64,000 nt of DNA from Solirubrobacterales bacterium (lineage in GTDB: Bacteria; Actinomycetota; Thermoleophilia; Solirubrobacterales; 70-9), in assembly GCA_050697075.1 (NCBI GenBank), contig JBOGZC010000003.1, positions 846 to 64,845 of the forward strand, given 5' to 3'. The stretch's first letter is position 1; every line of letters begins with the position of its first letter. Both the position numbers and the translations under genes were made by a program. Below are positions 32,097 through 53,255 of this stretch, piece by piece. Below the pieces are notes generated by a model. That model ran no database searches. It saw only the letters and a list, made by a program, of their open reading frames with translations, and had not been told where the DNA came from.

Positions 32097-32423
32097 GCAG
32101 TTCGCGCGATCGGCGTGCGATCGGCTGGTTGGGCGACAGGCGTCGAGAATCGGCCCAATCTGGCGGGGAGTTTCGCCCAGAAACCTGACGTTCCCCGAGG
32201 TGAGAGGCGATCAGGAAGCAGTGCTTTGCAGGGACTTCCCGACTCGGAGCGGAGGGGGAGGGATTCGAACCCTCGTCACGCCCTTAAGACGTGAAACGGT
32301 TTTCGAGACGATTGGTTCGGGCTCGGAATTGTGGCGCGTTCCAGGGGATTCCGAGGCTCGCGCTGTGGTTGCGCGATCGTTTTGCGATTCGGGGGTTTTG
32401 CGAGTTTTGAGAGGCCCCTCGGG
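32097..32423. repeat. composite repeat, copy A (block 1, block 2, tRNA-Ser 3' fragment, block 3)
   Basis: Block 1: GTTCGCGCGATCGGCGTGCGATCGGC..GTTGGGCGACAGGCGTCG.GAATCGGC. Block 2: TTTGCAGGGACTTCCCGACTCG. Block 3: GTTTTGCGATTC....GTTTTG.GAGTTTTGAGAG. Shared with copies at 49738 and 52930. Confidence 0.8.
32250..32312 (-). other. tRNA-Ser(CGA) 3' fragment (anticodon arm to discriminator), no 5' half
   Basis: Minus strand: ATCGT-CTCGAAA-ACCGT TT CACGTC-TTAAG-GGCGTG AC GAGGG-TTCGAAT-CCCTC CCCCTCC G. Class II long variable arm, G73, anticodon CGA. No complementary GGAGGGG 5' acceptor strand. Confidence 0.65.
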
Positions 32424-32588
32424 CATTTCGACGCCCGGAAAGTTCTGAAGTTTCGCGGTCATTCGATTGGCTGAGCTACAGCGTGAGTGCGTGAGTGGCG
32501 ACTGCCGCGGCCAAGGCGGCCCCGCTGATTGCCGACTGACTTACTTGCGCTGTTTCCTGGACTTAGAACCGAACCGGTCTCGTGCGCT

Positions 32589-33068
32589 CTACTTGTCCTG
32601 AGCGACGGTCGCTTTGAAGAGCTGGCCGCGTATCGCACCATTCGGAAACGCGTTTGTGTGGACGTTGACGTAGTAGGCGCCCGGATTCGCCTTGATCGCG
32701 TTGGCCAGCGTGGTGCTCACGGTCGTGCAGCTCGCCGACGCCGCCGCAGCGCCCGAGGTCGGTGCGTTCAAGGGGACCGAGATCGGTCCATTCGCGCCCA
32801 CCGGCGCTTTATGGATGTGCGCCGCAAGCGGGGTCCCGATCTTGGCCACCTGCAGGCCATAGCAGAGCTTCGTGCCACTGAACGACGCGCTGAACGTTCC
32901 GTAGCCATCGGGGTCGGCGGCCGGAACATCGTGCTCGCCGTCGAGCTTGGCGAAAAAGGATGAGCCTGCTGGTGCCGTTCCCGAGGCCGGCAGCGCTATG
33001 ACTGCTACCACCGCGAGCGCCGTGAGGCAGGCTCCCGCACCGAGGACCTTCATGCGATGTCTCTTCAT
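32589..33068 (-). CDS. CHRD domain-containing secreted protein
   Basis: Signal peptide. ...AAHIHKAPVGANGPI... and ...YYVNVHTNAFPNGAIRGQL, both CHRD hallmarks. Confidence 0.8.
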   Translation of the reverse strand: MKRHRMKVLGAGACLTALAVVAVIALPASGTAPAGSSFFAKLDGEHDVPAADPDGYGTFSASFSGTKLCYGLQVAKIGTPLAAHIHKAPVGANGPISVPLNAPTSGAAAASASCTTVSTTLANAIKANPGAYYVNVHTNAFPNGAIRGQLFKATVAQDK

Positions 33069-33288
33069 CGGTTCCCTCCTCTGAGTACCCGCCGGGCCCC
33101 CTTCGGTCTGAGGCCTGGCCGTTCAGGGCAACCCTACCCGCTCAGAATGGGGAGGAGCCAATCCCGTCGCCCAGACCGAGGCCGGGCGGCCCCAGCCGCT
33201 GCGTTCGCGGGCCTCGGATGATCCACGGCGGGCTCGACGACGTATCGAGGTGGCGAAACCACCCGACGACTAAGAGAAAGGACTCATC

Positions 33289-33780
33289 GTGAACGCCAGG
33301 AGAGCGCTACCGACGTTTGCGCTGGCGGCATGCGCGTCGCTTGCCGTCGCCGCATGTGGCAGCAGCAGTTCGAGCTCGACACCCAGTACCTCGACCAACA
33401 CCGCCGTTGCCGCTCCGGGGGCGTCGGTGTCGTTCGTGACGCCGAAGAACGGCTCGACGACCTCGAGCACGGTGACCGCGAAGGTGACGGTCAAGAACTT
33501 CAAGCTCGCGCCGGACCAGGTCGGCAAGAAGGCCGTTCAGGGCGAGGGCCACCTTCATTTCTCGATGGATGGCGGCAAGTACGACCAGCCCAAGTACTCA
33601 GGCGCGAATGGCAAGCTCGCCAAGCAGCTCGGCGTAGCCGGTCAATACTCGCCTTCGGTGACCCCGACGATCACCTACAAGGGCCTGCCCCCTGGCAAGC
33701 ACACCCTCGTGGTCTACCTCGCGAACAATGACCACACGGACACGGGCGTCCAGGCTAAGACGACGTTCACGGTCAAGTAG
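33289..33780 (+). CDS. lipoprotein, DUF4399-like
   Basis: AAAGGA SD. Lipobox LAVAACGSS. ...VQGEGHLHFSMDG... and ...GKHTLVVYLANNDHT. Confidence 0.6.
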   Translation: MNARRALPTFALAACASLAVAACGSSSSSSTPSTSTNTAVAAPGASVSFVTPKNGSTTSSTVTAKVTVKNFKLAPDQVGKKAVQGEGHLHFSMDGGKYDQPKYSGANGKLAKQLGVAGQYSPSVTPTITYKGLPPGKHTLVVYLANNDHTDTGVQAKTTFTVK

Positions 33781-33787
33781 TCGCCTG

Positions 33788-34165
33788 ATGCCGCGGAGCG
33801 GTCGAAGGCGAGTGATCCGCCGATTGGCGGCGGGGCTCGGGGCGCTCACGCTTAGCGCCTCGGGCCTGGCCTGCGGCGGCTCCTCGAGCCCAAGCTCGTC
33901 CACGTCGGTCCCAAGCTCGTCCACGTCGGTCGAGGCCTACGACTTCGGCTTTCGCCCCCCGTCTGAGACGCTCAAGATCGGAGACGCGGTCACCTGGACG
34001 AACACCGGCCAGACCACCCATACGGTCAAGGGTCCCGGGTTCTTCTCCCAGGCGATCAACCCGGGGCAGAGCTACTCGTTCACTTTCAAGAAGTCCGGGA
34101 CCTATCACTACATCTGCACCCTGCATCCGACGCTCATGCGGGGGACGATCGTAGTGAGTGGTTAG
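33788..34165 (+). CDS. cupredoxin (plastocyanin/amicyanin-like blue copper protein)
   Basis: ...IGDAVTWTNTGQTTHTV... and YHYICTLHPTLMRGTIVV (H, then C-x2-H-x3-M ligand pattern). Arg-rich signal peptide. Confidence 0.8.
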   Translation: MPRSGRRRVIRRLAAGLGALTLSASGLACGGSSSPSSSTSVPSSSTSVEAYDFGFRPPSETLKIGDAVTWTNTGQTTHTVKGPGFFSQAINPGQSYSFTFKKSGTYHYICTLHPTLMRGTIVVSG

Positions 34166-34259
34166 GGGCCCGGGTTCGTAATCCGACCGGCTACGGACAG
34201 CCACGGTTTTTGGCCCAAGCTCGGTGCGCGGGGTTGCCAGTGGCCTGGCCTCCGCGGTC

Positions 34260-35837
34260 TCAGTCCGCAACCCGGAACCTGAGGCGAACGGAGGCTGATG
34301 CATTGCCAACCCCGTCGGTAGCGACCAGCGTCGCGCGGTAGCTCGCCGGATGGAGGGCCCGCCCCCCGATCCACCCTGAGAAGCGCCTCGTGTTCGAGCC
34401 TCGATCGCTGTCCTTTGCGAAGTGTCCGACCGGGGTGAAGCGTCCGCAGCGGGGGCGACCGCGATTTCCGCGAGTTCTAGGAACGCACCGGCCGTCGACC
34501 CGCCTGCCAACCGACTTTCTCTCGACCGCAAAGGCCACGCGCGCATCCTTGGACAGGGAGTAGTCGAAGGTGGTGCCCTGAGCGAGTCTCGCGACTCGTG
34601 TCTTCGGTAGGCCAGTGGGCTCGACCGCGAACTTGGACGGGCGCACAGCCGCCCTGGTGAAACGAGGGGCGACCGAGGCGGACTTGGCGGTGCCGGCGAG
34701 CGAGACGTATGTGGGCGAGCCGGTTGCGTTGCTCGTGATCCGCAGCGCGGCGCTTCGGGCTCCCTTCGCAGTGGGAGTGAACCTGACGTTGACAATGCAC
34801 CCCGACCCCGCGGGCGTGACGTTGACCGTGCAGCTGTCGCCGGTCTTCTCGAAGTCGCCTGCGTTCGCGCCAACGATGCTGACCCCGGAGACGTCCAGAA
34901 CCGAGCTGCTCGTATTCGTGACCAGGAGCGCGCGAATTTCGCTCTTGTCGCCAACAGCCGTTGCGGGGAAGGTGGAGCTCGAGGGCGTGACCTTCAGGGT
35001 CGGGGAGACCGCGATCCCGCACGGGCCGTGAGCGCCGGTGATGAAGCTCTCGTCGACGCCGGAGCCGTCGAGGTTGGACCGCACGATCGTGTCGTTGCCG
35101 GTCGTCCAGTAGGCATGGCGACCATCCACGGCGATGCCACACGGGCTGTGGGTGATGATGAAGCTCTCGTCCGCAGCGCTGCCGTCCAGATCGGCGCGAC
35201 CGATGCTGTCGCCCGCCCGATTCGCCCAGTAGAGGAAGCCGTCGGTGACCGCCGCCCCACACGGGTCCTGCGTTGCGGAGATGAAGGACTGGTTGACGCG
35301 CGCCCCGTCGATGTGCGAGTTGCCGATGCTCCCCGGGTCGCCGCCGTTTGCCCAGTAGACGTTGTCGGCGCCCACCGCGACCCCGCACGGGGACGCCCCG
35401 GTGGTTATGAATGTTTGGCTCGGGAACGATCCATCGAGGTTCGCCCGCCCGATCGTGCCAACGCCCGATGCGCTCTGACTCCAAAAGACGTGGGCATTGT
35501 CGACGGCAACTCCCGGGGAGGGACCGGCCGTGGCGATGAATGACTGGTCGACTTGGGTGCCATTGAGGTTGGCGCGGGCGACGCCGCCCGAGACGGTGTC
35601 GTGCGTCCAGAACAGATGCGCCGAGTCGATCGCCACGCCGTTCGGAGCACCGGCACCGCTGATGAACCCCTGATCGACGCCCGTGCCGTCGCGGTTTGCG
35701 CGACCGATGCTGTCGTCGCCGCGATTGGCCCAGTAGATCTGGGCGGCCGCCGGGGCCGAGAGCGTCAAGGCCGCCAGCGCAGCGGCGAGCCCCCCTGCCG
35801 CGAGCCCCCGCACCCTCGGGACTCCGATCCGCCACAC
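34260..35837 (-). CDS. secreted YWTD-like six-bladed beta-propeller, choice-of-anchor-D-like Ig domain and C-terminal domain
   Basis: Six repeats ending (Y/F)W(A/T/S)(N/H/Q/T) and SIGRAN(L/R)DG. Then LKVTPSS..FPATAVGD...LLVTNTSS...VSIVGANAGDF. Start taken at GTG 35837, 5 nt after the upstream stop. Confidence 0.75.
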   Translation of the reverse strand: MWRIGVPRVRGLAAGGLAAALAALTLSAPAAAQIYWANRGDDSIGRANRDGTGVDQGFISGAGAPNGVAIDSAHLFWTHDTVSGGVARANLNGTQVDQSFIATAGPSPGVAVDNAHVFWSQSASGVGTIGRANLDGSFPSQTFITTGASPCGVAVGADNVYWANGGDPGSIGNSHIDGARVNQSFISATQDPCGAAVTDGFLYWANRAGDSIGRADLDGSAADESFIITHSPCGIAVDGRHAYWTTGNDTIVRSNLDGSGVDESFITGAHGPCGIAVSPTLKVTPSSSTFPATAVGDKSEIRALLVTNTSSSVLDVSGVSIVGANAGDFEKTGDSCTVNVTPAGSGCIVNVRFTPTAKGARSAALRITSNATGSPTYVSLAGTAKSASVAPRFTRAAVRPSKFAVEPTGLPKTRVARLAQGTTFDYSLSKDARVAFAVERKSVGRRVDGRCVPRTRGNRGRPRCGRFTPVGHFAKDSDRGSNTRRFSGWIGGRALHPASYRATLVATDGVGNASASVRLRFRVAD

Positions 35838-35842
35838 GCCGG

Positions 35843-37642
35843 CTAGCCGACCTTGATCTTGCGCGACTTTCGGGCCAGGCAGATCGTGCCGTCGCCGAGG
35901 ATCTTCTTCTTCACCTGCGCGTAGAAGGTGCCGTTCCCGCTCCGATTCTTGATGCGCCACTTGCCGGCGTGGTCGGAGGTATCGCTGCCGACCTTGTGGT
36001 CGTTGCCGTGCCGCTGCTTGAACACGGTCACCTCGTCCTTCTTGCAGGCCTTGCGACCGCCACCGCCGACCTGTCCCGCAAAGCGGCCCTTCTTGTTGAA
36101 GTAGTCGATGAAGAGCTTTCGAGCCGCGACGTCCTGGGTCGCTTCCGCCAACGCCGAGCCGTTGCACAGGGTGGCCTTCCCGGTGAAGATGCGCTGCGCT
36201 GTGCAGCCCTCGTTGTCCGTTACCGTGAGGGAGATCGTGTAGGTGCCGGCGTTCGCGTATTTGTGTTGCACCGTGCCGTCCAGGCTTTGGTGCGTGTGAC
36301 CGTCGCCGTAGTCGTAGTCGTAGGTGGCGACGGTCCCGTCGGAATCGGTCGAGGGGGTGCCGTTGAGCTTGACGAGGACCTTTCGCTTCGGCTTCGAGTG
36401 AGTGATGAACGACGCCGTCGGCGCCTGGTTCGGGGTGATCGCGATCGACTCCAGGTCGGGGTTCGTGCCGCCGGTCGGCCATGGCGAGCCGGAGATCAGG
36501 CTCAAGCTCCCGTCGGAGGCGACGTTGAAGCCGGAGATGTTGTTCGAGACGTTGTTGCTGACGTAGAGGCGCTTGCCGTCCGGCGTGAACGCCAACGCCT
36601 TGCCGTTCGTGCCCCCGGTCGCGAACGGCTGCCCGGAGATCGCGCTCAGTGACCCGTTCGAGTTGATGTTGTAGGCGTTGACGGTGCTGGTGATCCTGGT
36701 CGCGACGTAGAGGTGCTGGCCATCGGGCGAGATCGCGATGTTCAGCGGGTGGCTGCCGGGGTTGAGGCTCAGCGGGAAACCGGGGAGGGCCGTCAGGAGG
36801 CCGCTGGAGCCAACCGAGAATCCCGACAGCGTCCCGTAGGTGCCGTCCTCTGGATTGGAGACGTAGAGGAACTTGCCGTCCGGGGTGATCCCCGACCCGA
36901 ACGGATTGCTCCCCGCCGCGGAGGCGTTGCCCGTCTGAATCGACTGGATGGAGCTCAGCGCGCCGTTGGAGGCGACCGAGTAGGCGCTGACGGTGTTGGT
37001 CTCAACGCCCATCACCGGGGTAGCGTTCTCGTTCGGCACGTAGAGGTGCTGGCCGTCGGGGGCGACCGACCCAGCGAAGGGGTTCGTCTGGCCCGCCGGC
37101 ACGGAGAACGGCGACCCACTCGCCTGGCTCAGCGTGCCGCCCGACCCAATCGTCCAGGAGCCGATTGAGCTCCCGTGGTTCCAAGCGAAGACGCGCGAGC
37201 CGTCCGGGGCGGGCACCGTTCCCAGCGGGGTGCTGCCGGCCGCGAACGGCGACCCGGACACCGCGCTGAGGCCGCCGGTCCCGGCGATGTTGAACCCCCT
37301 CACGTCGCTGCTTCCAAAGGTGGCGACGTAGAGGTGCTGGGCGTCCGGGGTGACCGACAGGCCCTCGGTGATCGTGCCACCGGTCGCGAACGGAGAGCCG
37401 GAGACCGCTGAAAGCGAGCCATCGGAGTTGATGTGAAGCGCCGAGATGTTGTTCGAGCCGGCCGGAAAGCCATTGCTGACGTAGACGAAGCGGTCGGCCG
37501 CGGCAAACGCCGGCGCGATCAGGCACACGACCATCGCAGCCAAGCACAAGTGCCGGAATCTAACCCCCCAAGTGGGGGACGCCGATCTCACCGTTTCCCC
37601 CTCGATGCAGGCGATCCTAGCCGTATGAAGACCGCGACGCAA
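35843..37642 (-). CDS. secreted lactonase-type 7-bladed beta-propeller, PKD domain and basic C-terminal domain
   Basis: Repeats ...LYV(A/S/P)N..S..(V/I)S.(F/Y).(I/V)...G.LS..SGSPF. PKD-like DSDGTVATYDYDYGDG...YANAGTYTISLTVTDNEG. Start uncertain. Confidence 0.75.
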   Translation of the reverse strand: MRRGLHTARIACIEGETVRSASPTWGVRFRHLCLAAMVVCLIAPAFAAADRFVYVSNGFPAGSNNISALHINSDGSLSAVSGSPFATGGTITEGLSVTPDAQHLYVATFGSSDVRGFNIAGTGGLSAVSGSPFAAGSTPLGTVPAPDGSRVFAWNHGSSIGSWTIGSGGTLSQASGSPFSVPAGQTNPFAGSVAPDGQHLYVPNENATPVMGVETNTVSAYSVASNGALSSIQSIQTGNASAAGSNPFGSGITPDGKFLYVSNPEDGTYGTLSGFSVGSSGLLTALPGFPLSLNPGSHPLNIAISPDGQHLYVATRITSTVNAYNINSNGSLSAISGQPFATGGTNGKALAFTPDGKRLYVSNNVSNNISGFNVASDGSLSLISGSPWPTGGTNPDLESIAITPNQAPTASFITHSKPKRKVLVKLNGTPSTDSDGTVATYDYDYGDGHTHQSLDGTVQHKYANAGTYTISLTVTDNEGCTAQRIFTGKATLCNGSALAEATQDVAARKLFIDYFNKKGRFAGQVGGGGRKACKKDEVTVFKQRHGNDHKVGSDTSDHAGKWRIKNRSGNGTFYAQVKKKILGDGTICLARKSRKIKVG

Positions 37643-37707
37643 CCGCCGCGACTACCTTCGAGCCTGAATCCTCGCCGAATCGGAGGAACAAATCAAGGCG
37701 TCAATCC

Positions 37708-38382
37708 CTATTCCGAGCCAACGTAGTCGTCGGGAGAAGCTGCGAATGCCTCGACGCAGGTGAGCGAGCAGAAGTAGTGCAGTCGGTTCCTGTATGTGAG
37801 GCTCCCGGCCGAGGTGCCGGGATCAACCGTCATCCGGCAGACCGGATCGATCGGCAGACCCTCGCTCTGCTGTCCCTCGTGGACCGCCCGGTATACGGCG
37901 ACTACGTGCTTCAAGTTCTTGAATCGCTGCGCGCCGTGCGGACGCAGTTCGATCCCGGCAAGTCCGCTCGCGGCTTCGCGCGTTGCCCCGGTCAACAGAA
38001 CCTCGTCGCCACCCGCGGCTCCTGACACCCTGGCCGCCAGGTTGACCGCGTTCCCGAACCAGTCGCCGTGACGCTCGATGGCCGGTCCCGTATGCATCCC
38101 CACGCGGACGACCGGAAACCGCGATCGGGCGCCCACCTCATCGACGATTCGCAGCCCGAGCTCGACCGCTGCGTCGGGGTCGTCGCAGCGCAGCATCAAA
38201 GCATCCCCGATCGTCTTGATTTCCTCGGCTCCGTACCGGGGGAGGAGCTTTCGCACGAAATCGCAGAAGTCGGCTGCCAGCTCGGCTGCCTCCTCGTCCC
38301 CGTGGGCCTCGGTCAGAGCCGTGAACCCCGCGAGATCGGCGAACAGGAAGGTGTGGTCGGCTCTCTCTGTGCTGTCGTTCAC
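37708..38382 (-). CDS. class III adenylate/guanylate cyclase fused to a C-terminal YHS (TRASH-like) metal-binding domain
   Basis: FLFADLAGFTALTE...IKTIGDALMLRC...VRVGMHTGPA...GNAVNLAARV. Then IDPVCRMTVD...LHYFCSLTCVEAF. Confidence 0.85.
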   Translation of the reverse strand: MNDSTERADHTFLFADLAGFTALTEAHGDEEAAELAADFCDFVRKLLPRYGAEEIKTIGDALMLRCDDPDAAVELGLRIVDEVGARSRFPVVRVGMHTGPAIERHGDWFGNAVNLAARVSGAAGGDEVLLTGATREAASGLAGIELRPHGAQRFKNLKHVVAVYRAVHEGQQSEGLPIDPVCRMTVDPGTSAGSLTYRNRLHYFCSLTCVEAFAASPDDYVGSE

Positions 38383-38412
38383 ACGCCTGATTCTCCTCAG
38401 ACCGCTAGGGTA

Positions 38413-38429
38413 ATACCCCTAAGGGGTAT
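38413..38429. promoter_or_regulatory. perfect 8-1-8 palindrome ATACCCCT-A-AGGGGTAT, CsoR-type operator candidate
   Basis: Sits in the 52-bp divergent intergenic region between the cyclase-YHS and DUF4396 genes. AT-flanked C/G tracts are typical of CsoR/RcnR operators. Confidence 0.5.
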
Positions 38430-38434
38430 CTGCG

Positions 38435-38923
38435 ATGGAATCGAGTTCGCTCAATCGCCTAGCCGCCAGCGCCACCACGCACTGCCTCACGGGATGCGCG
38501 ATCGGCGAGGTCTCGGGCATGGCGATTGCCACCGCCTTCGGCTGGGGCAACGTCGCGCAGATCGCGCTGGCGGTGGGGCTGGCCTACTTCTTCGGCTTCG
38601 CTCTCACGGCCATGCCGCTGATCCGCGCTGGTCTCAGCACGGGCGCGATCGTCTCGACCGCCCTGGCAGCGGACACCGTCTCGATCACGATCATGGAGGC
38701 GATCGACAACCTGACCGTGGTCTTGATCCCGAACGCGATGGACGCCGGGCTTACCGATGCCCTCTTCTACGGCAGCATCGCGGCGGGCTTCGCGATCGCC
38801 TATCCCTTCGCCTTCTGGGCGAACCGGTACCTGATCGCGCGTGGCAAGGGCCACGCCGTCGTGCACGAGTACCACGGGGAGGGCGAAGGCCAAACCGTCG
38901 AAGCCGCTGGGCTGCGGGAGTAG
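38435..38923 (+). CDS. DUF4396 family membrane protein
   Basis: ...ATTHCLTGCAIGEVSGMAIA... and 4 TM helices. Confidence 0.7.
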   Translation: MESSSLNRLAASATTHCLTGCAIGEVSGMAIATAFGWGNVAQIALAVGLAYFFGFALTAMPLIRAGLSTGAIVSTALAADTVSITIMEAIDNLTVVLIPNAMDAGLTDALFYGSIAAGFAIAYPFAFWANRYLIARGKGHAVVHEYHGEGEGQTVEAAGLRE

Positions 38924-39194
38924 GCACGCCCATCAATCGGGCGTGCGCGGCTGGAGCGAGGGAAAGCGGATCATGCCGCCGCTCGCTGCGCCAAGGCTCG
39001 AGTCGGGGAGCAACTGCGCTCGTCCGACCAAGAGCGAAGGGCGCCAGAACATGCTCTGCGCCTGCCTATCGGCCGCACTGCTCGTCGGTCTCAGCGACGA
39101 GGAGAAGCAGCTACGCGGCCGCGAACAGGCGGATCGTTCTGAGCCCGATGCCCTAGAGGCAGAAACGGAGCGGCTGCGGGCAGTGGAGGTTGAG

Positions 39195-40166
39195 CTAGCT
39201 GTAAGACCCGAGCGGGTTGTTCAGCTCGTGTAGTCGAGCTGCGGGCGGCCTTCGGCCGAGGGAGCCGTGTGGACGCCGGAAGTTGTAGCGCCAAAGCCAA
39301 CCCTCAAGCGCCGAGGTGCGCTCGGCGGAGCTGCGGTAGATCGCGCCGTAAGCCCAGCCGCCCAGCATCGTGCGGATGAAGCGCTCCGCCTTGCCGTTGG
39401 TCTGCGGGCGGTAGGGCCGGATGCGCAGATGACGGATCCCAAGCGCCCGGCAGGCGATCGCGTGGATTGCCGAGCGGTAGGCGGAGCCATTGTCGGTCAT
39501 CACTCGCTCGACCTTGACCCCGTGGCGGCGATAGAAGGCGAGGGCGCGACGCAAGAACGCGACCGCCGTGGTCGCCTTTTCGTCGCCGAGCACCTCGACG
39601 TAGGCGAGACGGGTGGCGTCGTCGACGCAGACGTGGACCGCCTCCCAGCCGACCTGGGCGCGACGGACGCCCGAGCCGTCGGTCCTCGTCCGATTGCCGC
39701 GAGGCCGCCCGGCGATGCGATGGCCCGCTCCGCCCTCGATCCGCCCCAGCTTCTTGACGTCGATGTGAACGAGCTCCCCGGGGCGCGAGCGCTCGTAGCG
39801 GCGCGCCGGCTCGAGGCCGAGGCGCCCGAGCCGTCCCAGGCCAACCCTGGTCAGGATCCCGGAGACGGTGGTCTCGGGCATCCGGAAGATCTCGGCCAGC
39901 TCGGCGCCGGTGAAGCGACCGCAGGCGCAGATCGCCTCGATCCGATCCTCGGGGGTGCGGTTGTGGACGCAGCGGGCGACGGACGGTCGGTCCAGCAGGC
40001 CGACCTCGCCCTCGGCCAAGAAGCGGGCGACCCACTTGCGGGCGGTCGGCTCGCTCACTTCGGCGGCCTCGGCCGCCTTCGTGAGCGACCAACCCGCTTC
40101 GACGACTCGTTCGACCAAGAGCCTGCGCTTGTTCAGGCTGAGCGCGGCGTTAGCGTGGAGCTTCAT
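39195..40166 (-). CDS. IS481-family DDE transposase
   Basis: N-terminal HTH (MKLHANAALSLNKRRLLVERV...). rve core ...LVHIDVKKLGRI...VCVDDATRLAYVEVL...MTDNGSAYRS...RPYRPQTNGKAERFI... The TAG stop lies in the flanking CTAG. Confidence 0.85.
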   Translation of the reverse strand: MKLHANAALSLNKRRLLVERVVEAGWSLTKAAEAAEVSEPTARKWVARFLAEGEVGLLDRPSVARCVHNRTPEDRIEAICACGRFTGAELAEIFRMPETTVSGILTRVGLGRLGRLGLEPARRYERSRPGELVHIDVKKLGRIEGGAGHRIAGRPRGNRTRTDGSGVRRAQVGWEAVHVCVDDATRLAYVEVLGDEKATTAVAFLRRALAFYRRHGVKVERVMTDNGSAYRSAIHAIACRALGIRHLRIRPYRPQTNGKAERFIRTMLGGWAYGAIYRSSAERTSALEGWLWRYNFRRPHGSLGRRPPAARLHELNNPLGSYS

Positions 40167-40254: not shown

Positions 40255-40403
40255 ACCAGTGTTGGGATCTTCTAGGCCAGCGCCGGGCACTGCGCGACGC
40301 AGGGGCTGATCCCAACCAGGCGCAAGCGAGAGACGCGGGCACCGTGGAGCGTTATCAACAGTAGGGTGCGGCGACTTCGTCGCTCGCTTCCGCCCATCGC
40401 GAA

Positions 40404-41437: not shown

Positions 41438-41496
41438 TTTCGACTCCTTGAATTTGGGATCAGGTGGATTGAGTTTGCTGCGGGGTGATCTCTCGG

Positions 41497-45318: not shown

Positions 45319-45319
45319 G

Positions 45320-45916: not shown

Positions 45917-45919
45917 GCA

Positions 45920-45970
45920 GAACCGTTTTGCGATTCCGTCGTTTTGAGAGTTTCGAGAGACGCTGAGGGC
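45920..45970. repeat. orphan copy of block 3 of the composite repeat
   Basis: CCGTTTTGCGATTCCGTCGTTTTGAGAGTTTCGAGAGACGCTGAGGG versus 53209..53255 and 32378..32423. Confidence 0.65.
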
Positions 45971-46443
45971 TTCCTGAGTCGCCAGTTCTGAACCTCCCCT
46001 GCGGATATGATCGGCGGTGCTTGAGCGTTGGGGGGAGACCCGCTCGGCGGCTACGGCCGCGGATTCGGCCGATGGAACGGCCACTCCGGATTGCTGGGAG
46101 GTCATCTGCCCTCGCCCTCCGATGGCGCGTTTTCACTCTGGCGGGGCCGGAGATCGTCACAAAGTGGCGCCCTGAGAGCTCGTATTGCGGCTCTTTAGAA
46201 ATGCGGCAACGAATCTACTCGGCGGGCGACCGCTCGTCGCGTCTGTCGATGCTGGGTCAACCGCTGAGGGGATCTCAGCAGCCGTAGGGGTCCCTCTTCC
46301 CGAGGGACTTTGTGCAACACCCTCCATGGACAGCAGCAGTGTCCGGCGTGAGATACTCGGCGGGCGATGTCGGAGGATCTCGAAGATTGCATCCGCCGGC
46401 CCTTCATCGCCGAGCCGGCCCACGCTCAGACAGCGCCTCTTTG

Positions 46444-47370
46444 ATGCGAGCCGCCGGTATCAGCGAGTTCGGCGGTGCTGTAAGGCGGATCGACCTCCCA
46501 GATCCGCGCCCCCTCGCGGACGACGAGGTCCTGATCGAAGTCCGGGCCGCGGGCGTCGGCAACTGGGAGGAGGTCGTCCGGTCGGGCGAGTGGGATGTCG
46601 GCCGCGCCCCTCCCATGGCGCTGGGCGTCGAGGCCGCCGGGGTTGTAACGGCGGTCGGAGATTCCGTCGAGAACTGGGAGCCTGGCGATGAGGTGCTCAG
46701 CCACCCGCTCCCGCTGCGGGATCAGGGAGCCTGGGCGCCCCTGCTGATCGCCTCGGCGACGGTGGTCGCGCGAAAGCCTGCCGCCCTCTCGTGGGAGGCC
46801 GCTGCAGCGTTCCCCGTTCCCGCCCTGACCGCCACGCAGGTGATCGACGGAGCCCTGGCGGTGCGCCCTGACGACCTGGTCCTCGTCAATGGTGGGAGCG
46901 GGGTGACCGGCACGCTGCACGTTGGGCTGGCCGCGGCGCGCGGCGCCCAGGTGATCGCGACAGCAGGACCGGCCAGCCATGAGCGCCTGCGCCGGCTCGG
47001 AGCGGCCCACGTGCTCGACTATCACGACCCCGACTGGCCGGAGCAGGCGCGCGCGATTGGCGGCGGCTTGGGCATGACCGCCGTCGCGAACGCCGCGCCT
47101 GACGGCTCAGCCGTCGCGATCGGCACCGTGCGCGACGGCGGTCGCCTTGCGACGATCACCCAGGACCCACCGGACGAGCAGCGGGGCATCGAGGTCTCGT
47201 CGGTGATCGTGCAGCCCGACGGCCGCGCGCTCGGCGAGCTCGCCGAGCTGGTCGCGACCGGGAAGCTCGAGGTCTCGACCGCGGCGACGTTCCCGCTCGA
47301 GGAGGCCGCCGAGGCCTTGGCGGCAGCAATCGGGGGCGGCGCCGGCGGAGCGGTCGTGCTTCGCCCCTGA
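46444..47370 (+). CDS. MDR-superfamily zinc-type alcohol dehydrogenase / NADPH:quinone oxidoreductase-like
   Basis: ...VLIEVRAAGVGNWEE...GVEAAGVVTAVGDSV..W.PGDEV...LVNGGSGVTGTLHVGLAAARGAQVIA... Confidence 0.85.
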   Translation: MRAAGISEFGGAVRRIDLPDPRPLADDEVLIEVRAAGVGNWEEVVRSGEWDVGRAPPMALGVEAAGVVTAVGDSVENWEPGDEVLSHPLPLRDQGAWAPLLIASATVVARKPAALSWEAAAAFPVPALTATQVIDGALAVRPDDLVLVNGGSGVTGTLHVGLAAARGAQVIATAGPASHERLRRLGAAHVLDYHDPDWPEQARAIGGGLGMTAVANAAPDGSAVAIGTVRDGGRLATITQDPPDEQRGIEVSSVIVQPDGRALGELAELVATGKLEVSTAATFPLEEAAEALAAAIGGGAGGAVVLRP

Positions 47371-47402
47371 CGGGGGCGAGGATCTAGCCCGCCAGGGATT
47401 GA

Positions 47403-47636
47403 GTGGCGACCCCCTCTGGTCAACGACGGCCCCGTATGGTCGAGCCGGTCTTCGCCCAGATCAAGAACAACCTGCGGGCGGGGCGCTTCCACGAGCGGCG
47501 GGGATGGATCTCGGACGGCCACCGGACGTTCTACCCAGAGCTCGGCGTCGCCGATACCCGATTCCGGCTGAGCCTGTCCGAGGGCGCCGTCGATCGGGAG
47601 CAGCCGGAACGTGGCGAGAGCAGGCGGCCGAGCTAG
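47403..47636 (+). pseudogene. remnant of a DDE transposase C-terminus (IS5/IS1182-like)
   Basis: ...MVEPVFAQIKNNLRAGRFHERRG... resembles the conserved VE.VFGQIK...GFRRF.LRG tail. No upstream catalytic domain. Confidence 0.4.
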
Positions 47637-47988
47637 GGGTTACCGCCGACGGGAATCGCGCCAAACAAATAATGCAACGGCAAGGCCTCAATGTCGTCAC
47701 ACAGACCCGCACTGGATTCGGATCCCGGTAGCGGTGCCTCGAAAGGCCTGCTCAGCTAAAGGTTTGTCGATTCGGTGGTTGGGGTTTGTCCCGGACGTTG
47801 TCCTGCGCTCGTGGCGCTCCGATCTCCAGCGAGCCCCAGGCCATCTTGGTTGAGTGGAGCTAGACGGCTCCATCGAGCTTCTCGAGCGGCCCGCGGACAT
47901 TGGGGCTGAGCCCGCTCGTCCTCACCGCTACTGGCCGGCACCTTGGGCCAAGAGCCGCACGGGCTGCGGTCCAGACTCCGCAAACGCC

Positions 47989-48264
47989 ATGCGGTTCAAG
48001 GTAGGCATTAGCGGAGAGCATCTTGATCGGGCAAGGGCGGCGCTGAACCGTGCTGACATCCCGACAATCGGTCCTCTCTACTACCGGCTCAGAGAGCAGG
48101 AGGTAATCGAGAGCAAGAGGGGGCTCCTGGCGGCGGTACTAGATGCCGAGACCGCCGAGGAGGCGAAAGCCCGCGTGAGGGAAAACTTGCCCGCGAATGG
48201 CAACGGCAACTACGGCATCGGGGACCCAGAGAGCTGGGTAGAAGGGCCGACTGGCCCAGCTTGA
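47989..48264 (+). CDS. hypothetical protein
   Basis: MRFKVGISGEHLDRARAALNRADIPTIGPLYYRL... Start chosen at the internal ATG. Weak. Confidence 0.3.
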   Translation: MRFKVGISGEHLDRARAALNRADIPTIGPLYYRLREQEVIESKRGLLAAVLDAETAEEAKARVRENLPANGNGNYGIGDPESWVEGPTGPA

Positions 48265-48712
48265 CCCGGGCGGTGAGACGTGCGGTCAAGGTCGGGGCGA
48301 GGTGGCGGATGGGGCTCGCGAAGCGCGTGAGGAGGAGAATTGACCCGCTCCGAGCCCGCCGGCGTGTTTGCTGCTGGAAGTAACAGCGAAACCTGGCCAG
48401 CAGTGCAACGCTCCGTTCTACGTCGTCGAAAGGCGACCAGAGACGTCTTCGTTCACCAGAGCGCGCTCGTCGGCACGGAGGTCGAGGCCTTAGCGAGGGA
48501 GCCATGGTCACCTACGAGACCGAATCGAGCCCCAAGGGCCCCAAGGCGGCAAACGTCCAAACGAGCTAGGCGGCGAGCCATAATGGCCTCGTCGCGGCGA
48601 GCGCGATCGCCCGGCTAGGAGGGCTGAGCGAAACGGCTAGCGGAACTCATCGGAGAGTTGCGCCGCAGTTGCGGCAGGCGGGCTTCGGTTTGACGACCTC
48701 GGGCACACCCGG

Positions 48713-48955
48713 CTACTGCTCGTAGCCCTCGACCGTGCCGGCGTCGCGGACCGACGCCTCGGCGGGATCGAGTTGGAACTCCTGGCGCGCCTCGCGCTGG
48801 CGAAGCAGGTCCCAGCAGCGATCGAGCTCGACCTTCAGTTCGGCGAGCCGCTCGTGGCGGGCGTCGTCCGGGCCGTGCCCCTCGGCCTCCTGCATCAGGC
48901 GCTGCTCCTCCGCGACCAGCTCGTCGATCTGATCGCGAAGGGTCGAGTCGTCCAC
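48713..48955 (-). CDS. DUF2630 family protein
   Basis: MDDSTLRDQIDELVAEEQRLMQ......RLAELKVELDRCWDLLRQREA. Compact 80-aa helical protein. Confidence 0.7.
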   Translation of the reverse strand: MDDSTLRDQIDELVAEEQRLMQEAEGHGPDDARHERLAELKVELDRCWDLLRQREARQEFQLDPAEASVRDAGTVEGYEQ

Positions 48956-49330
48956 CGGCAGACCTTAGCGCTCCAGTTATGGTCCAGGAGAGTCGGGGAT
49001 TCGAGTCCCCTCGCCCGCAGCGATCCGCCCCGGGGAGGGAGCGAACGGGGGGCGCGAGTCTGAACCCGAGCGCGATGAAGTCATCAAGGCGATGTGCGCG
49101 CCACAACTCTCACGGATACCGGCTCGTTTCGGCAGCTCTGGCGCTGCCGACCGTGATCGTGGGCGCGGGCTAGGTCGGAGCCGGGGTGGCGACCCTCTAG
49201 CACCGCCCCGGACTCGCTCGCGTGATTATCCCTTCCTGCGGCGGGGGTGGTTGCCGTACGACTTCTTCTCGCCGATGGTGCCGTCCTTGGTCTCGACCGA
49301 GACTGACGACAGGCGGACTAGATTTGAGCA

Positions 49331-49687
49331 ATGGGTCGAGCCTGGACATGCGCTGGCTGCGGCGTGACAACAAGCTTTGGTCCAAGCGCCCCTGAGCCGC
49401 TGCACCCCGAAGGATGGGCCCAAAAAGACGGGGAGTGGCGCTGCCTCCGGTGTCGGCGTGAGGACGTTATGGCCGAGGCTTCCGAACGAGCGCCCGCCGG
49501 CACGAAGGCCGGCTGGCGGCGAGCGCTCACCGAGTTTGAGCTGCTGCGCGACCCCGCCGCCTCGGACCAATTGATCGCCAGACGGGCCAAGTGCCCCACG
49601 GCCTTTGTCGCCCCGGTCCGCGCGGCACTTCGCAAGGCGGGGAGGCTGGCGCCCCCCTCAAGCTCAACGCCGGAGAACGAGCCATGA
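49331..49687 (+). CDS. zinc-ribbon hypothetical protein
   Basis: C-x2-C ... C-x2-C (WTCAGCG...WRCLRCR). Confidence 0.45.
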   Translation: MGRAWTCAGCGVTTSFGPSAPEPLHPEGWAQKDGEWRCLRCRREDVMAEASERAPAGTKAGWRRALTEFELLRDPAASDQLIARRAKCPTAFVAPVRAALRKAGRLAPPSSSTPENEP

Positions 49688-49737
49688 TTGCTGGCTGTCG
49701 TGGCGCCAGCCGCTGCCGTGCGCCAGGCTTGCTGCGG

Positions 49738-49975
49738 AGGGCGTGCGATCGGCTTGCGATCAGCTCGTTGGGCGACAGGCGCGAACAATCGCTATCCGAT
49801 CGAGCGAAGGCGCGTCGAATTGGGCCGAATCCGAGGCGGAGCGGGAGGAAGGAATGGGCCCGTTTGCAGGGACGTTCTTCTTCGAAGCGGAGGGGGAGGG
49901 ATTCGAACCCTCGTCACGCCCTGAAGACGTGAAACGGTTTTCGAGACCTTTGAAACGGTCTTCAGAGACCGTTTC
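49738..49975. repeat. composite repeat, copy B (block 1, part of block 2, tRNA-Ser fragment, perfect 10-bp hairpin)
   Basis: See 32097..32423. Ends in GAAACGGTCT-TCAG-AGACCGTTTC (49952..49975). Confidence 0.75.
49888..49950 (-). other. tRNA-Ser(CGA) 3' fragment, copy B
   Basis: Same 63 nt as copy A except one substitution in the variable-arm loop and divergence in the 5' side of the anticodon stem. Confidence 0.65.
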
Positions 49976-50066
49976 AGCCACAGCGGCTTCCCGCGCCACC
50001 ACCTAATGCAGCGGATAGCCGCGCGTCGCAGGACCAGCGACTTCGTCGTCCCGACTATGCCTGCTA

Positions 50067-50339
50067 CTAGGCGTCGTATCGGCCGCCGAACTGCGCCGGT
50101 TGGGGCCGGCTCTTGTGCCCAGCTTCTTGGATGATCGGCGGGACCTCGGGGTCGGAGAGAAAGCTCTGAAAGCCCTCCTCGTCCCAGTCGAAGAGCACCC
50201 ACACCCGGTCCTCCTCATTGGGGTCGCGAAAGACCGTCGCGCCCTTGGACCCATGCTCCTTTCGCTTCTCGGCACCCTTGGTCGAGAAGATGCTCAGGAA
50301 CTGGTCGAAATCTTCGACCGTCGTCGTTGCTAGGAACAA
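50067..50339 (-). CDS. ABM-like / dimeric alpha-beta-barrel small protein
   Basis: MFLATTTVEDFDQFLSIFSTKGAEKRKEHGSKGATVFRDPNEEDRVWVLFDWDEEGFQSF. Confidence 0.55.
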   Translation of the reverse strand: MFLATTTVEDFDQFLSIFSTKGAEKRKEHGSKGATVFRDPNEEDRVWVLFDWDEEGFQSFLSDPEVPPIIQEAGHKSRPQPAQFGGRYDA

Positions 50340-50533
50340 GTGTCTACTCCTCTCGGGACTTAGCGTCGTTGCACTTGCGCGGCCTAAGCTCGCACCCTAT
50401 CTGCGCAGGTGAGTCGGCTCAAAGAACGCGTTTTTCACCAACCCCTGAGGAACCTGCCAAAAGCTCTCAGGCGTCGCTCCCGTTTGTCTTGAGGTTTGTT
50501 GCATTCATCATCCCTTTCCGACCCGATGGAGCG

Positions 50534-52879
50534 ATGCCTTTGACGTCGCCCAAAGCCGTTATGGCGGCTGGGAGCTCGCTGGTTCGAATAGGGGTCGTCT
50601 CGGCCGCGGCCGGGGCCCTCGCCCTATTCGTCCTTGCTCCCATGGCCCAGGCGCTCAGCTCGGTTCCGGCTCGGACCCCGATCACCAACGGGCCCGTGAA
50701 CGCGATCGCCGCTACGCCGCAGGCGATCTATATCGGCGGCAGCTTCTCTCATGTGGGGCCCAACACAGGTCCCGGCGTTGGGGTCGATGCCGCAACCGGA
50801 AGGAATAGCCACTGGCCGATGGTTGCGAGTGAGCCCGGCGCCACACCAAGGGTCTGGGATGCCGCCCCCGACGGCTCTGGGGGCTTCTACGTTGCCGGCG
50901 ACTTCACTCGCGTGGGCGGCAGATCGCTTGGCTACCTCGTCCACCTACGAGCGGATGGGAGCATCGACCGACGCTTCGCGCCGGCCCCCGATGGCCGGGT
51001 CTTCGACCTCGTGGTGTCTGGTTCGACGGTCTATGCGGTGGGCGGCTTCACCACGATCGGCGGTCAGTCCAGAGACGGACTCGCGGCTCTCAACGCTAGA
51101 ACCGGCGCTGCTACGAGCTGGGACCCGGCCGCGAACGGAATCGAGGGAGGAATAGAGGCGATCGCGGTGTGGGGCTCGACGGTCTACGTGGGGGGCGCGA
51201 TCAGAGAGATCGAGGGACAGCCGCGAAATCACGTCGCCGCGCTTGATGTATCGACCGGCGCGCTGGAGCCCTGGAATCCGCCAGACGTCCGCGGGGTGAT
51301 CGACGCCCTCGCCGTCTCGAGCTCGACGGTCTACATTGGCAAGGAGTCCACGCATATCGGCAACATGTTGGACGCGGTGGACCGATCGACCGGCAAGACC
51401 ATCGGCATCTTTCACTCGTATCCGACCGGGGCGGTCCGCGACCTCGTCGTCAAGGGGTCGAGGCTCTACGTGGCGGGTTCGTTCTCCACGATGCTGCACT
51501 TCAGGGAGAGCGGTGACGTCTTCATCCCTAGGCCCTCTCTCGCGTCCTACAACACGACTACGGGCGAGCTGACGCACTGGAATCCACGGCCGGACGACGG
51601 CGTCTCGGCAATCGCCATCTCCGGCTCGAAGGTCTACGCGGCGGGCGACTTCACCGAAGTCCGAGGAAAGTCTCGCGATCACCTGGCGGCGATCAATCGG
51701 TGGAGCGGCGTACCGACCGCCTGGAACCCGAGCGCAGACAGCGCGCCAAGCACGATTGCGGTCTCGGGCTCGACCGTCTATACGGGTGGCAGTTTCAACT
51801 CGGTGGGAGGCAAGCCGAGGGATAGCCTCGCCGCGCTCAGTCCGACGACCGGAACGCTGATGTCCTGGAACCCAAAGGTCAGTCCCGATGATTTCCCTCG
51901 TGGCGATGTGGAGGCCCTAGCGGTCCACGGCTCGACCGTCTACGCGGGCGGTGCCTTCCACGAGATCGGCGGTCAGCCGCGGAGCAACCTCGCCGCCATC
52001 GACCGAACCACGGGTGCGCCGACGAGCTGGAATCCTGGAGCCAACCACACCGTCTCGGCGCTGGCTGCCTCCGACAACGCGATCTACGCCGGTGGGGAGT
52101 TCACCTCGGTCGGCGGCGAGGTTCGCAACAACCTCGCCAAGATCGACTTGGCCAGCGGCGACGTGACCGACTGGGATCCGAACGTGACGACCACCAAGCA
52201 CTACCCGCAGTACCCCAACTACTTCCCGTCTCACCAGTGCATCGGAGACGATCCGTGCCTGTTCACCCTCGTCGATGCGATCGCGGTCGCTGGCTCGAGG
52301 GTCTACGTCGGCGGGATCTTCGATCACGTCGCCGGCAAGCCCCGAGGCAACATCGCGGCCCTCGACGCAACAACCGGTGCCGCCAAGAGCTGGAGTCCCG
52401 ACGCTAGCGGCGGCGGCTCCGCTGGTGGCTACGCGAGCGGCATGGTCGCCGCCCTGCGGGTCTCGGGTCCGATCGTCTACGCCGGCGGTGATTTCGCGCA
52501 GATCGGCGGCGAGCCCCGCGCCAATCTCGCCGCCCTGAACACAGCGGACGGCTCGGCGACGAACTGGGACCCGAGCGTCAGCTTTCACGGCGGTGACACC
52601 ATCATCAGCGCGATCGCCGTGAAGGGCCCCAACGTCTATGTGGGCGGCACCTTCGACAAGGTCGGGGCAACGGCCCGTGACAACCTCGCTGCCGTCAACG
52701 CATCGAGCGGAACCTCGACGAGCTGGAATCCAAGCGCCGAGTTCCCCCAGACCTATCTCCCTTTCTATGTCGCCGCGACAAGCCTGGCTCTGGCCCCCGA
52801 TGGCTCGCTGTGGGCCGGCGGGCGCTTCAGCTTTTTCCCAGCCGCCCCGGCGGCGGGCATCGCGCGGTTTGAGCCCTGA
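50534..52879 (+). CDS. large secreted repeat protein (about 14 beta-propeller-type blades)
   Basis: Signal peptide. More than 12 repeats of ...(V/I)Y(A/V)GG.F..(I/V)GG..R..LAA(L/I)(D/N)..(T/S)G....WNP... Confidence 0.75.
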   Translation: MPLTSPKAVMAAGSSLVRIGVVSAAAGALALFVLAPMAQALSSVPARTPITNGPVNAIAATPQAIYIGGSFSHVGPNTGPGVGVDAATGRNSHWPMVASEPGATPRVWDAAPDGSGGFYVAGDFTRVGGRSLGYLVHLRADGSIDRRFAPAPDGRVFDLVVSGSTVYAVGGFTTIGGQSRDGLAALNARTGAATSWDPAANGIEGGIEAIAVWGSTVYVGGAIREIEGQPRNHVAALDVSTGALEPWNPPDVRGVIDALAVSSSTVYIGKESTHIGNMLDAVDRSTGKTIGIFHSYPTGAVRDLVVKGSRLYVAGSFSTMLHFRESGDVFIPRPSLASYNTTTGELTHWNPRPDDGVSAIAISGSKVYAAGDFTEVRGKSRDHLAAINRWSGVPTAWNPSADSAPSTIAVSGSTVYTGGSFNSVGGKPRDSLAALSPTTGTLMSWNPKVSPDDFPRGDVEALAVHGSTVYAGGAFHEIGGQPRSNLAAIDRTTGAPTSWNPGANHTVSALAASDNAIYAGGEFTSVGGEVRNNLAKIDLASGDVTDWDPNVTTTKHYPQYPNYFPSHQCIGDDPCLFTLVDAIAVAGSRVYVGGIFDHVAGKPRGNIAALDATTGAAKSWSPDASGGGSAGGYASGMVAALRVSGPIVYAGGDFAQIGGEPRANLAALNTADGSATNWDPSVSFHGGDTIISAIAVKGPNVYVGGTFDKVGATARDNLAAVNASSGTSTSWNPSAEFPQTYLPFYVAATSLALAPDGSLWAGGRFSFFPAAPAAGIARFEP

Positions 52880-52929
52880 GTCTCACCGCCTTCGGCACTG
52901 CCATTTCATTTTCGTTGGTCTGGCATCAC

Positions 52930-53255
52930 GGCGGTTCGCGCGATCGTCGCGCGATCGGCCCGTTGGGCGACGGGCGTCGGAATCGGCGTCAATCGGCCAC
53001 TTTCCCGGCCAAGACCGCCCTTCTTGAGCTTAAGCCGTGAAGAGGAAGAAGTGCCGTTTGCAGCTACTTCCCGACTCGAAGCGGAGGGGGAGGGATTCGA
53101 ACCCTCGTCACGCCCTTAAGACGTGAAACGGTTTTCGAGACGAGGATTTTGAGTCTTGCTTGGTGCCGATTTGCAGGCCCTTCGCCCCGGTCCCTGGACT
53201 TGTGCGATCCGGTTGCGATTCCCTCGTTTTGAGAGTTATGAGAGACGCCTTGGGG
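52930..53255. repeat. composite repeat, copy C
   Basis: All four blocks present. Closest to copy A. Confidence 0.8.
53082..53144 (-). other. tRNA-Ser(CGA) 3' fragment, copy C; candidate att boundary of the phage-like island
   Basis: Identical to copy A from the discriminator through the anticodon loop. Confidence 0.65.

Follow-up and report, generated by a model that had tools for sequence, protein, structure and literature searches.

Three repeats in a 64,000-nt stretch of DNA (here called the window; C3:846-64845) from the metagenome-assembled genome of a Solirubrobacterales bacterium (Actinomycetota; G000) each embed the 3′ part of a tRNA-Ser(CGA) gene. Our analysis indicates, with a probability of roughly 0.8, that these repeats are the seams of integrative elements which inserted serially by means of a tyrosine integrase specific for this tRNA. 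A preceding sequence-only reading of the window had interpreted them as attachment (att) sites left by serial island accretion, and this is supported by the 3′ half that the fragments share with the genomic tRNA, by their common orientation and by the non-core nature of the segments between them. The assembly comprises 3.59 Mb in 176 contigs with a G+C content of 68.7%, compared to ~65% for the entire window. Fragments were counted by BLAST searches of the tRNA-Ser core against the whole genome, tRNAs were called by ARAGORN on the window and the whole genome, and RNA families were searched with Rfam at gathering as well as permissive thresholds. Integrases were identified by a PF00589 profile scan of the genome and by Pfam analysis of the window genes, and their homologs were sought in one genome per species. 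Among the relatives, 40 genomes were used to count tRNA-Ser(CGA)-type cores and 30 genomes of the same genus to assess synteny of the segments.

ARAGORN called no tRNA within the window and placed the intact tRNA-Ser(CGA) gene on another contig (C105:5967-6057). The 3′ 61 nt of this gene (C105:5997-6057, GTCTCGAAAACCG...CCCTCCGC; in full GTCTCGAAAACCGTTTCACGTCTTAAGGGCGTGACGAGGGTTCGAATCCCTCCCCCTCCGC) recur on the minus strand of the window with 61, 60 and 61 of 61 identical positions in copies 1, 2 and 3, respectively, and the sole mismatch, in copy 2 (49887-49947), is one base in the loop of the variable arm. With E-values of ~1e-29 against the genome, these matches are not due to chance. The comparison with the genomic gene, which had been proposed as a check, hence returned exactly the same 3′ half down to this one base, and the tRNA-Ser(CGA) 3′ fragments described earlier on the minus strand are indeed present at all three places. 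The stretch identical to the tRNA sets in two bases before the anticodon loop, at G30/T31 (at G29 in copy 2); the G at position 49948 also equals the tRNA base. The earlier description of the fold is correct within two bases, as is the claim that the copies diverge exactly 5′ of the anticodon loop; the 63-nt spans given for them hold two to three non-tRNA bases because identity starts only at G30/T31 (G29 in copy 2). As had also been noted, none of the copies has a matching 5′ acceptor strand or D-arm, and nothing upstream of the fragments resembles the 5′ half of the tRNA. Two additional ARAGORN calls were judged spurious, namely a second “tRNA-Ser(cga)” (C94:8674-8763), whose sequence does not appear to resemble those of the remaining tRNA-Ser genes, and another “tmRNA” (transfer-messenger RNA; C98:2598-3011, tag AADHAGG...), which starts on a tRNA-Ser fragment. 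A plausible tmRNA is located on C52.

Besides the gene itself, the genome contains ~14 partial copies of the core rather than three, and the array continues well outside the window. Two copies are found on C1 (one degenerate), three on C3, four on C17 (one partial), two on C57 (one cut after 31 nt), one on C84, three on C98 and one on C105, located 3.7 kb downstream of the intact gene. On all six contigs with more than one copy (6/6) the copies have the same orientation, and the C105 copy is oriented as the tRNA; over nine same-contig comparisons, the chance of such co-orientation is ~0.5^9. Exact 127-nt overlaps connect the end of C17+ to C82+ or C95+ and that of C82+ to C84-, and the right end of C3 matches the left end of C17 with 98.5% identity over 133 nt. 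Along the resulting path C84+ → C82- → C17- → C3- the tRNA-sense orientation is maintained. End overlaps joined only C84/C95-C82-C17-C3 and C15-C170-C105. The copies are restricted to island contigs, are spaced 1.3–17.6 kb apart, and showed neither terminal inverted repeats nor target duplications.

In-register alignment of all copies revealed one fixed layout resembling attP, the attachment site of an integrative element, with a left arm, the core and a right arm (Table 1). Box A (TTCGAG.CGGGAAGTCCCTGCAAA) lies directly 3′ of the core and is followed by ~75 unconserved bases and then by Box B (GCCTGTCGCCCAAC-N5-GATCGC-N5-GATCGC). In all 13 copies with a right arm, including the real tRNA, the start of the Box B GATCGC pair lies at +124 to +127 nt relative to the 3′ end of the tRNA. 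In pairwise comparisons the cores are on average 95% identical and the right arms 52%, with conservation of the right arm confined to Boxes A and B. Boxes at constant spacing fit the pattern expected of protein-binding sites, making Box B and the ATCGC pairs candidate arm-type integrase sites. That the fragments sit inside longer shared blocks on both sides, as described previously, was confirmed by repeat families (D4, D9, D10) and by the alignments, and the CGATCG-rich “block 1” of that description corresponds to the GATCGC-N5-GATCGC pair, whose distance from the 3′ end of the tRNA is constant (+125 to +127 nt). The accompanying guess that the flanks are arm-type recombinase sites fits both the spacing and the box-like conservation, although binding is predicted here from sequence.

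On the 5′ side of the core, three arm types can be distinguished, two long ones (P1 and P2) and a short one (H). P1 arms are found at junction 1 of the window, C98:6632 and C57:979, and P2 arms at junction 3, C17:34512 and C57:13552. Both long types carry TCTCAAAACTCTCAAAAC and an (A/G)ATCGC-N5-GATCGC pair at -79/-80 (6/6 long left arms). The H arm (AGACCRTTKCA) occurs at junction 2 and at seven other places, giving eight H-type junctions in the genome; in many cases it is a perfect dyad, GAAACGGTCTC-TGA-AGACCGTTTC, and it repeats the ACCGTTTCA half-site, the 3′ side of the anticodon stem. In addition, solo left arms without a core are present in the window and at C17:42.1 kb and C95:7.8 kb. 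The solo arm in the window probably marks a decayed junction, which would divide segment E1 between junctions 1 and 2 into two older segments.

Table 1. Coordinates, strand and distinguishing marks of the features in the window (positions in the 64,000-nt stretch).
Feature	Position	Strand	Remarks
Fragment 1, att core (anticodon loop, variable arm, T-arm, acceptor 3′ strand)	32249-32309	-	61/61 vs C105:5997-6057
Fragment 2, att core	49887-49947	-	60/61 vs tRNA
Fragment 3, att core	53081-53141	-	61/61 vs tRNA
Right (P′) arm, junction 1	32095-32248	-	Box A TCCGAGTCGGGAAGTCCCTGCAAA directly 3′ of core; repeat family D9
Box B, junction 1	32106-32135	-	CGCCCAAC-N5-GATCGCACGCCGATCGC; +127 from tRNA 3′ end
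Long left (P) arm, P1, junction 1	32310-32480	-	TCTCAAAACTCGCAAAAC and AATCGCAAAACGATCGC pair at -80 from core; D10
Solo left-arm remnant, core lost	45924-46106	-	D10; 88% identical to P arm C57:13300-13484
Right (P′) arm, junction 2	49734-49886	-	Box A partly diverged; Box B GATCGCAAGCCGATCGC at 49745-49761
Short hairpin (H) left arm, junction 2	49948-49980	-	GAAACGGTCTC-TGA-AGACCGTTTC, then aaag; dyad copy of ACCGTTTCA half-site
Right (P′) arm, junction 3	52929-53080	-	Box A present; Box B GATCGCGCGACGATCGC at 52940-52956
Long left (P) arm, P2, junction 3	53142-53330	-	TCTCATAACTCTCAAAAC, AATCGCAACCGGATCGC pair at -79, CCTGCAAATCG; D10
Tyrosine integrase of tRNA-Ser-targeting family, element E0	1248-2453	-	PF00589, E = 5e-21
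E0 cargo, ~30 kb, between P′ arm and integrase	2454-32094	.	Secreted RTX, TolB-like and beta-propeller paralogs; G+C ~65%
E1, 17.6-kb island segment, no integrase	32310-49886	.	Pfam; non-syntenic in same-genus genomes
IS481-family transposase (rve/rve_3 + LZ_Tnp_IS481) in E1	39195-40232	-	Pfam
E2 cassette, no integrase	49981-52928	.	~3.2 kb including P′ arm 52929-53080 and H arm 49948-49980
E3, right-hand part of integrase-bearing element	53331-64000	.	Pfam; contig-end match
RF04351 (plastid psbI-rps4 3′ UTR), sub-threshold matches	32250-32304, 49888-49942, 53082-53136	+	Rfam

The integrase of the window belongs to element E0, which has junction 1 as its left end. It likely starts with a GTG at 2420, and a conserved GACTTCCAAT...AGAGCTA motif lies at 2425-2451. 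Two paralogs with 86–88% protein identity to the window copy are encoded on C17 (89-1255 and from 46773 on). Each of the three integrase genes is convergent with a gene for the large terminase subunit TerL, and the TerL 3′ ends are 92–95% identical among the copies. In other Solirubrobacterales, homologs with 63–69% identity are found 150–350 nt downstream of an intact tRNA-Ser(CGA) and in the same orientation (L013, L017, L019 and L021); one further homolog adjoins tRNA-Ser(TGA) (L016), and a 73%-identical one directly follows an H-type fragment and right arm (L008). In these canonical cases, GGACTTCCAAT...AGAGCTA and then the start of the integrase come within 6–15 nt after Box B. Among the homologs listed, L007 and L009 are most similar to the window integrase (74–75%), and these two, like the integrases of this genome, keep the GACTTCCAAT motif, whereas the DNA upstream of it is unrelated. 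It is simplest to assume that one integrase clade (C3, C17a, C17b, L007 and L009) inherited an internal gene position, which would leave 23–30 kb of cargo between the right arm and the integrase. We did not adopt a second recombination site between Box B and the GACTTCCAAT motif as an explanation for integrases lying apart from right arms, the clade with an internal integrase being simpler.

Comparison with relatives showed that both the sites and the segments vary. The relatives contain from one to five or six tRNA-Ser(CGA)-type cores per genome, co-oriented where they lie on one contig (G013, G003 and G025), and in G025 two Ser tRNAs carry islands, one of 8 kb and one of 3 kb. In G018 the architecture is unchanged but the fragments differ in the sequence of their variable arm, a host-matched variant. 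Box-type right arms are present downstream of some tRNA-Ser(CGA) genes and absent from others: the gene of G023 is followed by unrelated DNA without Box A or B, and among ten readable contexts of intact tRNAs in soil metagenomes, five have such an arm and five lack it. We read a tRNA gene of this kind without a right arm as an empty site. None of the 30 same-genus genomes has the 20 kb from junction 1 to junction 3 as one contiguous stretch, and only scattered single-gene matches were found in them; the segments are a mosaic and not syntenic, as serial accretion had been expected to leave them. Several contig ends in the assembly are 96–99% identical and then diverge (C82 vs C95 at the right end of C17, C57 vs C95, C98 vs C15, and C1 vs C83). 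All of these pairs lie within island regions, which points to structural variation of the islands among strains of the sampled population. The downstream flank of the G023 tRNA was uninformative as a route to the terminus of the array, being a widely repeated short element: a ~40–100-nt sequence downstream of that tRNA (L001, G023:C1 ~10700-11600) has dozens of occurrences across the G000 contigs, often several per contig with ~400-nt spacing, and resembles a module repeated at the gene starts or in the intergenic stretches of a large family of paralogs.

In tyrosine integrase systems directed at tRNA genes, the attP contains the 3′ portion of the tRNA, so that integration regenerates the gene and displaces the old 3′ part, and repeated events give tandem arrays (Islander, PMC4383910). 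Integrase-less derivatives which retain both att sites are known as CIMEs (cis-mobilizable elements) and can be mobilized by a neighbor (PMC5704250), and in tycheposon islands the same inward push leaves partial tRNAs scattered (10.1101/2020.12.28.424599). The anatomy of the junctions is in every respect the one predicted by this model of integration at a tRNA gene. In the mechanism that we propose, the attP of an element would consist of the left arm, the 61-nt copy of the tRNA 3′ part, and the right arm with Boxes A and B, and strand exchange would take place in or at the anticodon loop. Integration would restore the tRNA from the copy of the element and move the earlier 3′ part downstream; since the tRNA would be rebuilt and its former end displaced each time, successive integrations would leave co-oriented tRNA 3′ fragments. 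Each fragment would then lie between two elements, with the right end of one on its 5′ side and the left end of the following one on its 3′ side. The segments without integrase may represent decayed or non-autonomous elements that could still be moved by resident integrases, and because every junction has a left arm, a core and a right arm and thereby resembles an attP, any segment could leave as a circle able to re-integrate.

A sister system is present at tRNA-Arg(ACG) (C15:6925-8799 and C1:38180-38400). On C15, an integrase with 59% identity to that of the window precedes a homologous left arm, which includes an ATCGC pair, and then a 44-nt fragment which is 100% identical to the 3′ part of tRNA-Arg(ACG), with the anticodon loop as its starting point. 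On C1, a right arm that is Box A/Box B-like and contains a CCATCGC pair comes after the real tRNA-Arg(ACG). Thus, the same arm grammar serves two tRNA targets. Based on synteny with G003 and G023, the two tRNA genes lie ~50 kb apart in the core genome, and some of the tRNA-Ser fragments probably lie in the neighboring tRNA-Arg(ACG) island.

Several observations weigh against serial insertion at tRNA-Ser(CGA). No integrase of this genome adjoins a core and right arm, and most of the segments (1.3–17.6 kb) lack an integrase altogether. The assembly is fragmented into its 176 contigs and includes strain variants, which limits how far the island contigs can be ordered and the window located with respect to the genuine tRNA on C105. 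The tRNA-Ser fragments on C1 and C98 seem to be part of the neighboring tRNA-Arg(ACG) island, possibly inverted, and in G003 a tRNA-Ser fragment (836,973) lies 79 kb upstream of the tRNA, beside tRNA-Arg(ACG). Lastly, neither the core pattern nor the integrase was found in a viral contig collection.

The live alternative extends serial insertion rather than contradicting it, and we put it forward tentatively, as a possibility with the odds against it. The short H-armed segments without integrase could be maintained non-autonomous cassettes that are shuffled in trans by the resident tRNA-Ser integrases, forming an integron-like gene-capture array on a tRNA-derived attP. A unit would comprise the right arm with Boxes A and B, 1–4 kb of cargo, the AGACCRTTKCA hairpin and the tRNA core, and could re-insert at any tRNA-Ser core, with the sister system at tRNA-Arg(ACG) differing by a swapped core. 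In line with this, eight of eight H-type junctions border segments without integrase, mostly small (1.3–3.8 kb where both ends are seen), and H-type junctions with Boxes A and B at equal spacing also occur in the relatives G013, G015 and G018; the boxes are conserved despite the freely varying spacer between them. Cargo is more similar to relatives than one flanking chromosomal gene is: the segment upstream of the C84 fragment is 91–95% identical to G015, compared to 85% for one chromosomal gene beside the tRNA. The branch points and alternative contigs that the assembly shows inside the islands would also be expected from such shuffling. However, gene orientation is mixed and several of the units hold more than one gene, unlike integron cassettes, no excised product or rearranged junction was seen, the same cargo is also found without flanking fragments (C83), and autonomous elements decaying into CIMEs would produce the same anatomy.

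It is improbable that the copies all go back to a single att remnant which segmental duplication or homologous recombination, and not a series of independent integrations, multiplied inside the island. The islands do contain paralogous modules (a small gene in three copies, duplicated RTX modules, and three related integrase/TerL modules), and the ~40-nt Box B and the 61-nt core could act as homology patches. However, at least three unrelated left-arm types are present, the right arms are only ~52% identical compared to 95–100% for the cores, and the real tRNA carries the same architecture downstream. This fits duplication poorly because duplication would age core and arms together.

We reject a tRNA-derived repeat resembling a miniature inverted-repeat transposable element (MITE) or short interspersed nuclear element (SINE), spreading by transposition or retroposition, which the sequence-only reading had kept as its alternative and which is now very unlikely on grounds of orientation, boundaries and the link to an integrase. 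The ~14 copies of a short (~350 nt), partly tRNA-derived unit that might suggest it are co-oriented on every multi-copy contig, showed none of the terminal inverted repeats and target duplications of such elements and occur only on island contigs; the 5′ boundary is the anticodon loop in all of them, the right arm also follows the genuine tRNA, and the cognate integrase family adjoins the intact tRNA in relatives.

Equally slight is the chance that the fragments are functional tRNA-like RNA modules, such as 3′ processing or stability signals on transcripts, for which the perfectly conserved core and the sub-threshold cmscan matches at these sites might speak: a tRNA-like fold is impossible without the acceptor 5′ strand, adjacent genes run in both orientations relative to the fragments, and Rfam at gathering thresholds returned nothing in the window. 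At permissive thresholds, RF04351 (3′ untranslated region, UTR) scored 39–40 bits against a cut-off of 68 on the strand opposite to the fragments, and a weak tRNA-Sec match spanned the hairpin arm; neither was accepted as an RNA gene. The plastid 3′-UTR model presumably resembles the complement of the tRNA-Ser T-arm.

Serial insertion at tRNA-Ser(CGA) is a well-known kind of process, and what is new here is the uncultured Solirubrobacterales lineage as its host. What stands out is the number of ~14 junctions for one tRNA, mostly bordering segments without integrase, and an unusually legible attP grammar that is common to a tRNA-Arg-targeting sister integrase. Like the tRNA and tmRNA islands collected in Islander (PMC4383910), the system combines a tyrosine integrase, a target tRNA restored by the element, a displaced direct 3′ fragment at the island end, an identity block starting from the anticodon-loop sublocation, and tandem arrays at one tRNA gene. 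In that collection an array was accepted only if each member has its own integrase, which gave 125 tandems of at least two and only 4 of at least three islands among 3919 (PMC4383910), in contrast to ~14 fragments of one tRNA and mostly integrase-less segments in the present uncultured host. As in other tRNA-targeting integrative elements, a tyrosine recombinase with a catalytic domain, direct tRNA 3′ repeats and putatively empty attB sites in relatives are present, and the integrase beside its target tRNA (attL) is found in the other genomes listed above and not within this one.

The CIMEs described by the accretion-mobilization model for ICESt1 and ICESt3 of Streptococcus thermophilus (PMC5704250) are likewise integrase-less segments with both att sites; they adjoin integrase-bearing relatives in tandem where the target gene has its 3′ end, and mobilization by the resident integrase in cis or trans is predicted for both. 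E1, E2 and the cassettes on C98, C105, C1 and C17 are all bounded by both junctions, contain no PF00589 match, and lie in tandem with an integrase-bearing relative. In contrast to the S. thermophilus elements, no conjugation genes were seen here; the integrase-bearing elements carry terminase, ParB-methylase and defense genes, and the array is far longer. Prochlorococcus tycheposons (10.1101/2020.12.28.424599) also integrate at tRNA genes, with newcomers pushing older elements inward and scattering partial tRNAs and degenerate remnants; their cargo-carrying forms and those with packaging genes, similar to phage-inducible chromosomal islands (PICI-like), share integrases, whose clades track the tRNA target. 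The present elements differ in phylum and integrase lineage, and no primase/helicase module was found in Pfam scans of the window; membership of the tycheposon gene-sharing group is unlikely. The ssrA-specific islands of Dehalococcoides are comparable in being described as horizontally acquired and integrated at one small-RNA gene, the target there being tmRNA (ssrA; PMC3146451). With integrons the array shares short cassettes, a repeated recombination site between them and a tyrosine recombinase. Unlike in integrons, there is no IntI-type integrase beside an attI, the integrases are not at the start of the array, the sites are tRNA-derived attP-like composites instead of attC hairpins, cassette genes run in either direction, and there are cassettes with several genes; we do not classify the array as an integron.

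Contigs that bear fragments or are linked to those that do total ~200 kb (~5% of the genome), and represent flexible genome of an uncultured soil actinobacterial lineage in which the seams can be read from tRNA-Ser fragments. The complete attP grammar is preserved and runs from the boxes of the left arm at -80 through the core and Box A to Box B at ~+125. The integrases at tRNA-Ser and tRNA-Arg(ACG) form a natural pair for studying switches of target specificity, and the sets of attP and integrase are candidate tools for site-specific integration in high-G+C actinobacteria. Island finders that demand one integrase per island would overlook nearly the whole array because most of its segments have none.

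Read in the tRNA sense, from right to left, the window consists of E3, junction 3, E2, junction 2, E1, junction 1 and E0 with its integrase last, which matches the earlier partition into stacked segments and adds E0 to it. According to Pfam, E1 encodes a CHRD protein, beta-propeller/PKD proteins, a YHS-fused cyclase, DUF4396, the IS481 transposase, an F420H2 quinone reductase, HxlR, an MFS transporter, a hydrolase, an alcohol dehydrogenase (ADH) and DUF2630. The cargo of E2 is a gene for an 850-aa DUF5122/Kelch-like beta-propeller protein (50327-52879, +) together with a 90-aa open reading frame (ORF), as identified by Pfam and gene scoring. E3 contains a PIN-like ORF, an XRE-ImmA/IrrE fusion, a ubiquitin-like/E1 (ThiF) operon, a dGTPase-like HD protein, ParB-N/DNA methylase, a small-terminase-like ORF with a helix-turn-helix (HTH), and TerL (61538-63037). 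Beyond the window, the right end of C3 enters the 3′ end of an integrase gene which is 98.5% identical to C17:89-1255, and if this link between C3 and C17 holds, the E3 element would measure roughly 37 kb in total.

The ParB-N/methylase, small HTH (terminase-small-like) and TerL genes form three paralogous modules (61144-63037 (+) in the window, C3:1-369, and C17:43688-46776). The integrase/TerL elements could be phage satellites or truncated prophages. We did not call the region beyond 53.1 kb a complete prophage because, among the genes scanned there and in the three TerL modules, no portal or capsid gene was found, the phage-type genes being TerL, the small-terminase-like HTH and the ParB-methylase.

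Some genes of E1 have relatives elsewhere. Relatives of its IS481 transposase are multi-copy in several genomes of the genus. The zinc-type ADH gene (46312-47370, +) has 92–96% DNA identity in seven other species of the genus, and the MFS transporter gene of the same segment only 77–80%, which suggests that the ADH gene has spread recently between species; in those genomes, the ADH gene is not beside tRNA-Ser fragments. A small gene without a Pfam match and with no known function (47854-48264, +) recurs at C84:4273-4632 and C98:3313-3678, so that three island cassettes carry it with 88–89% protein identity. Its conserved part comprises ~95 aa (MRFKVGISGEHLDRARAALNRADIPTIGPLYY...), and two of the three copies are located just upstream of H-type junctions in the tRNA sense.

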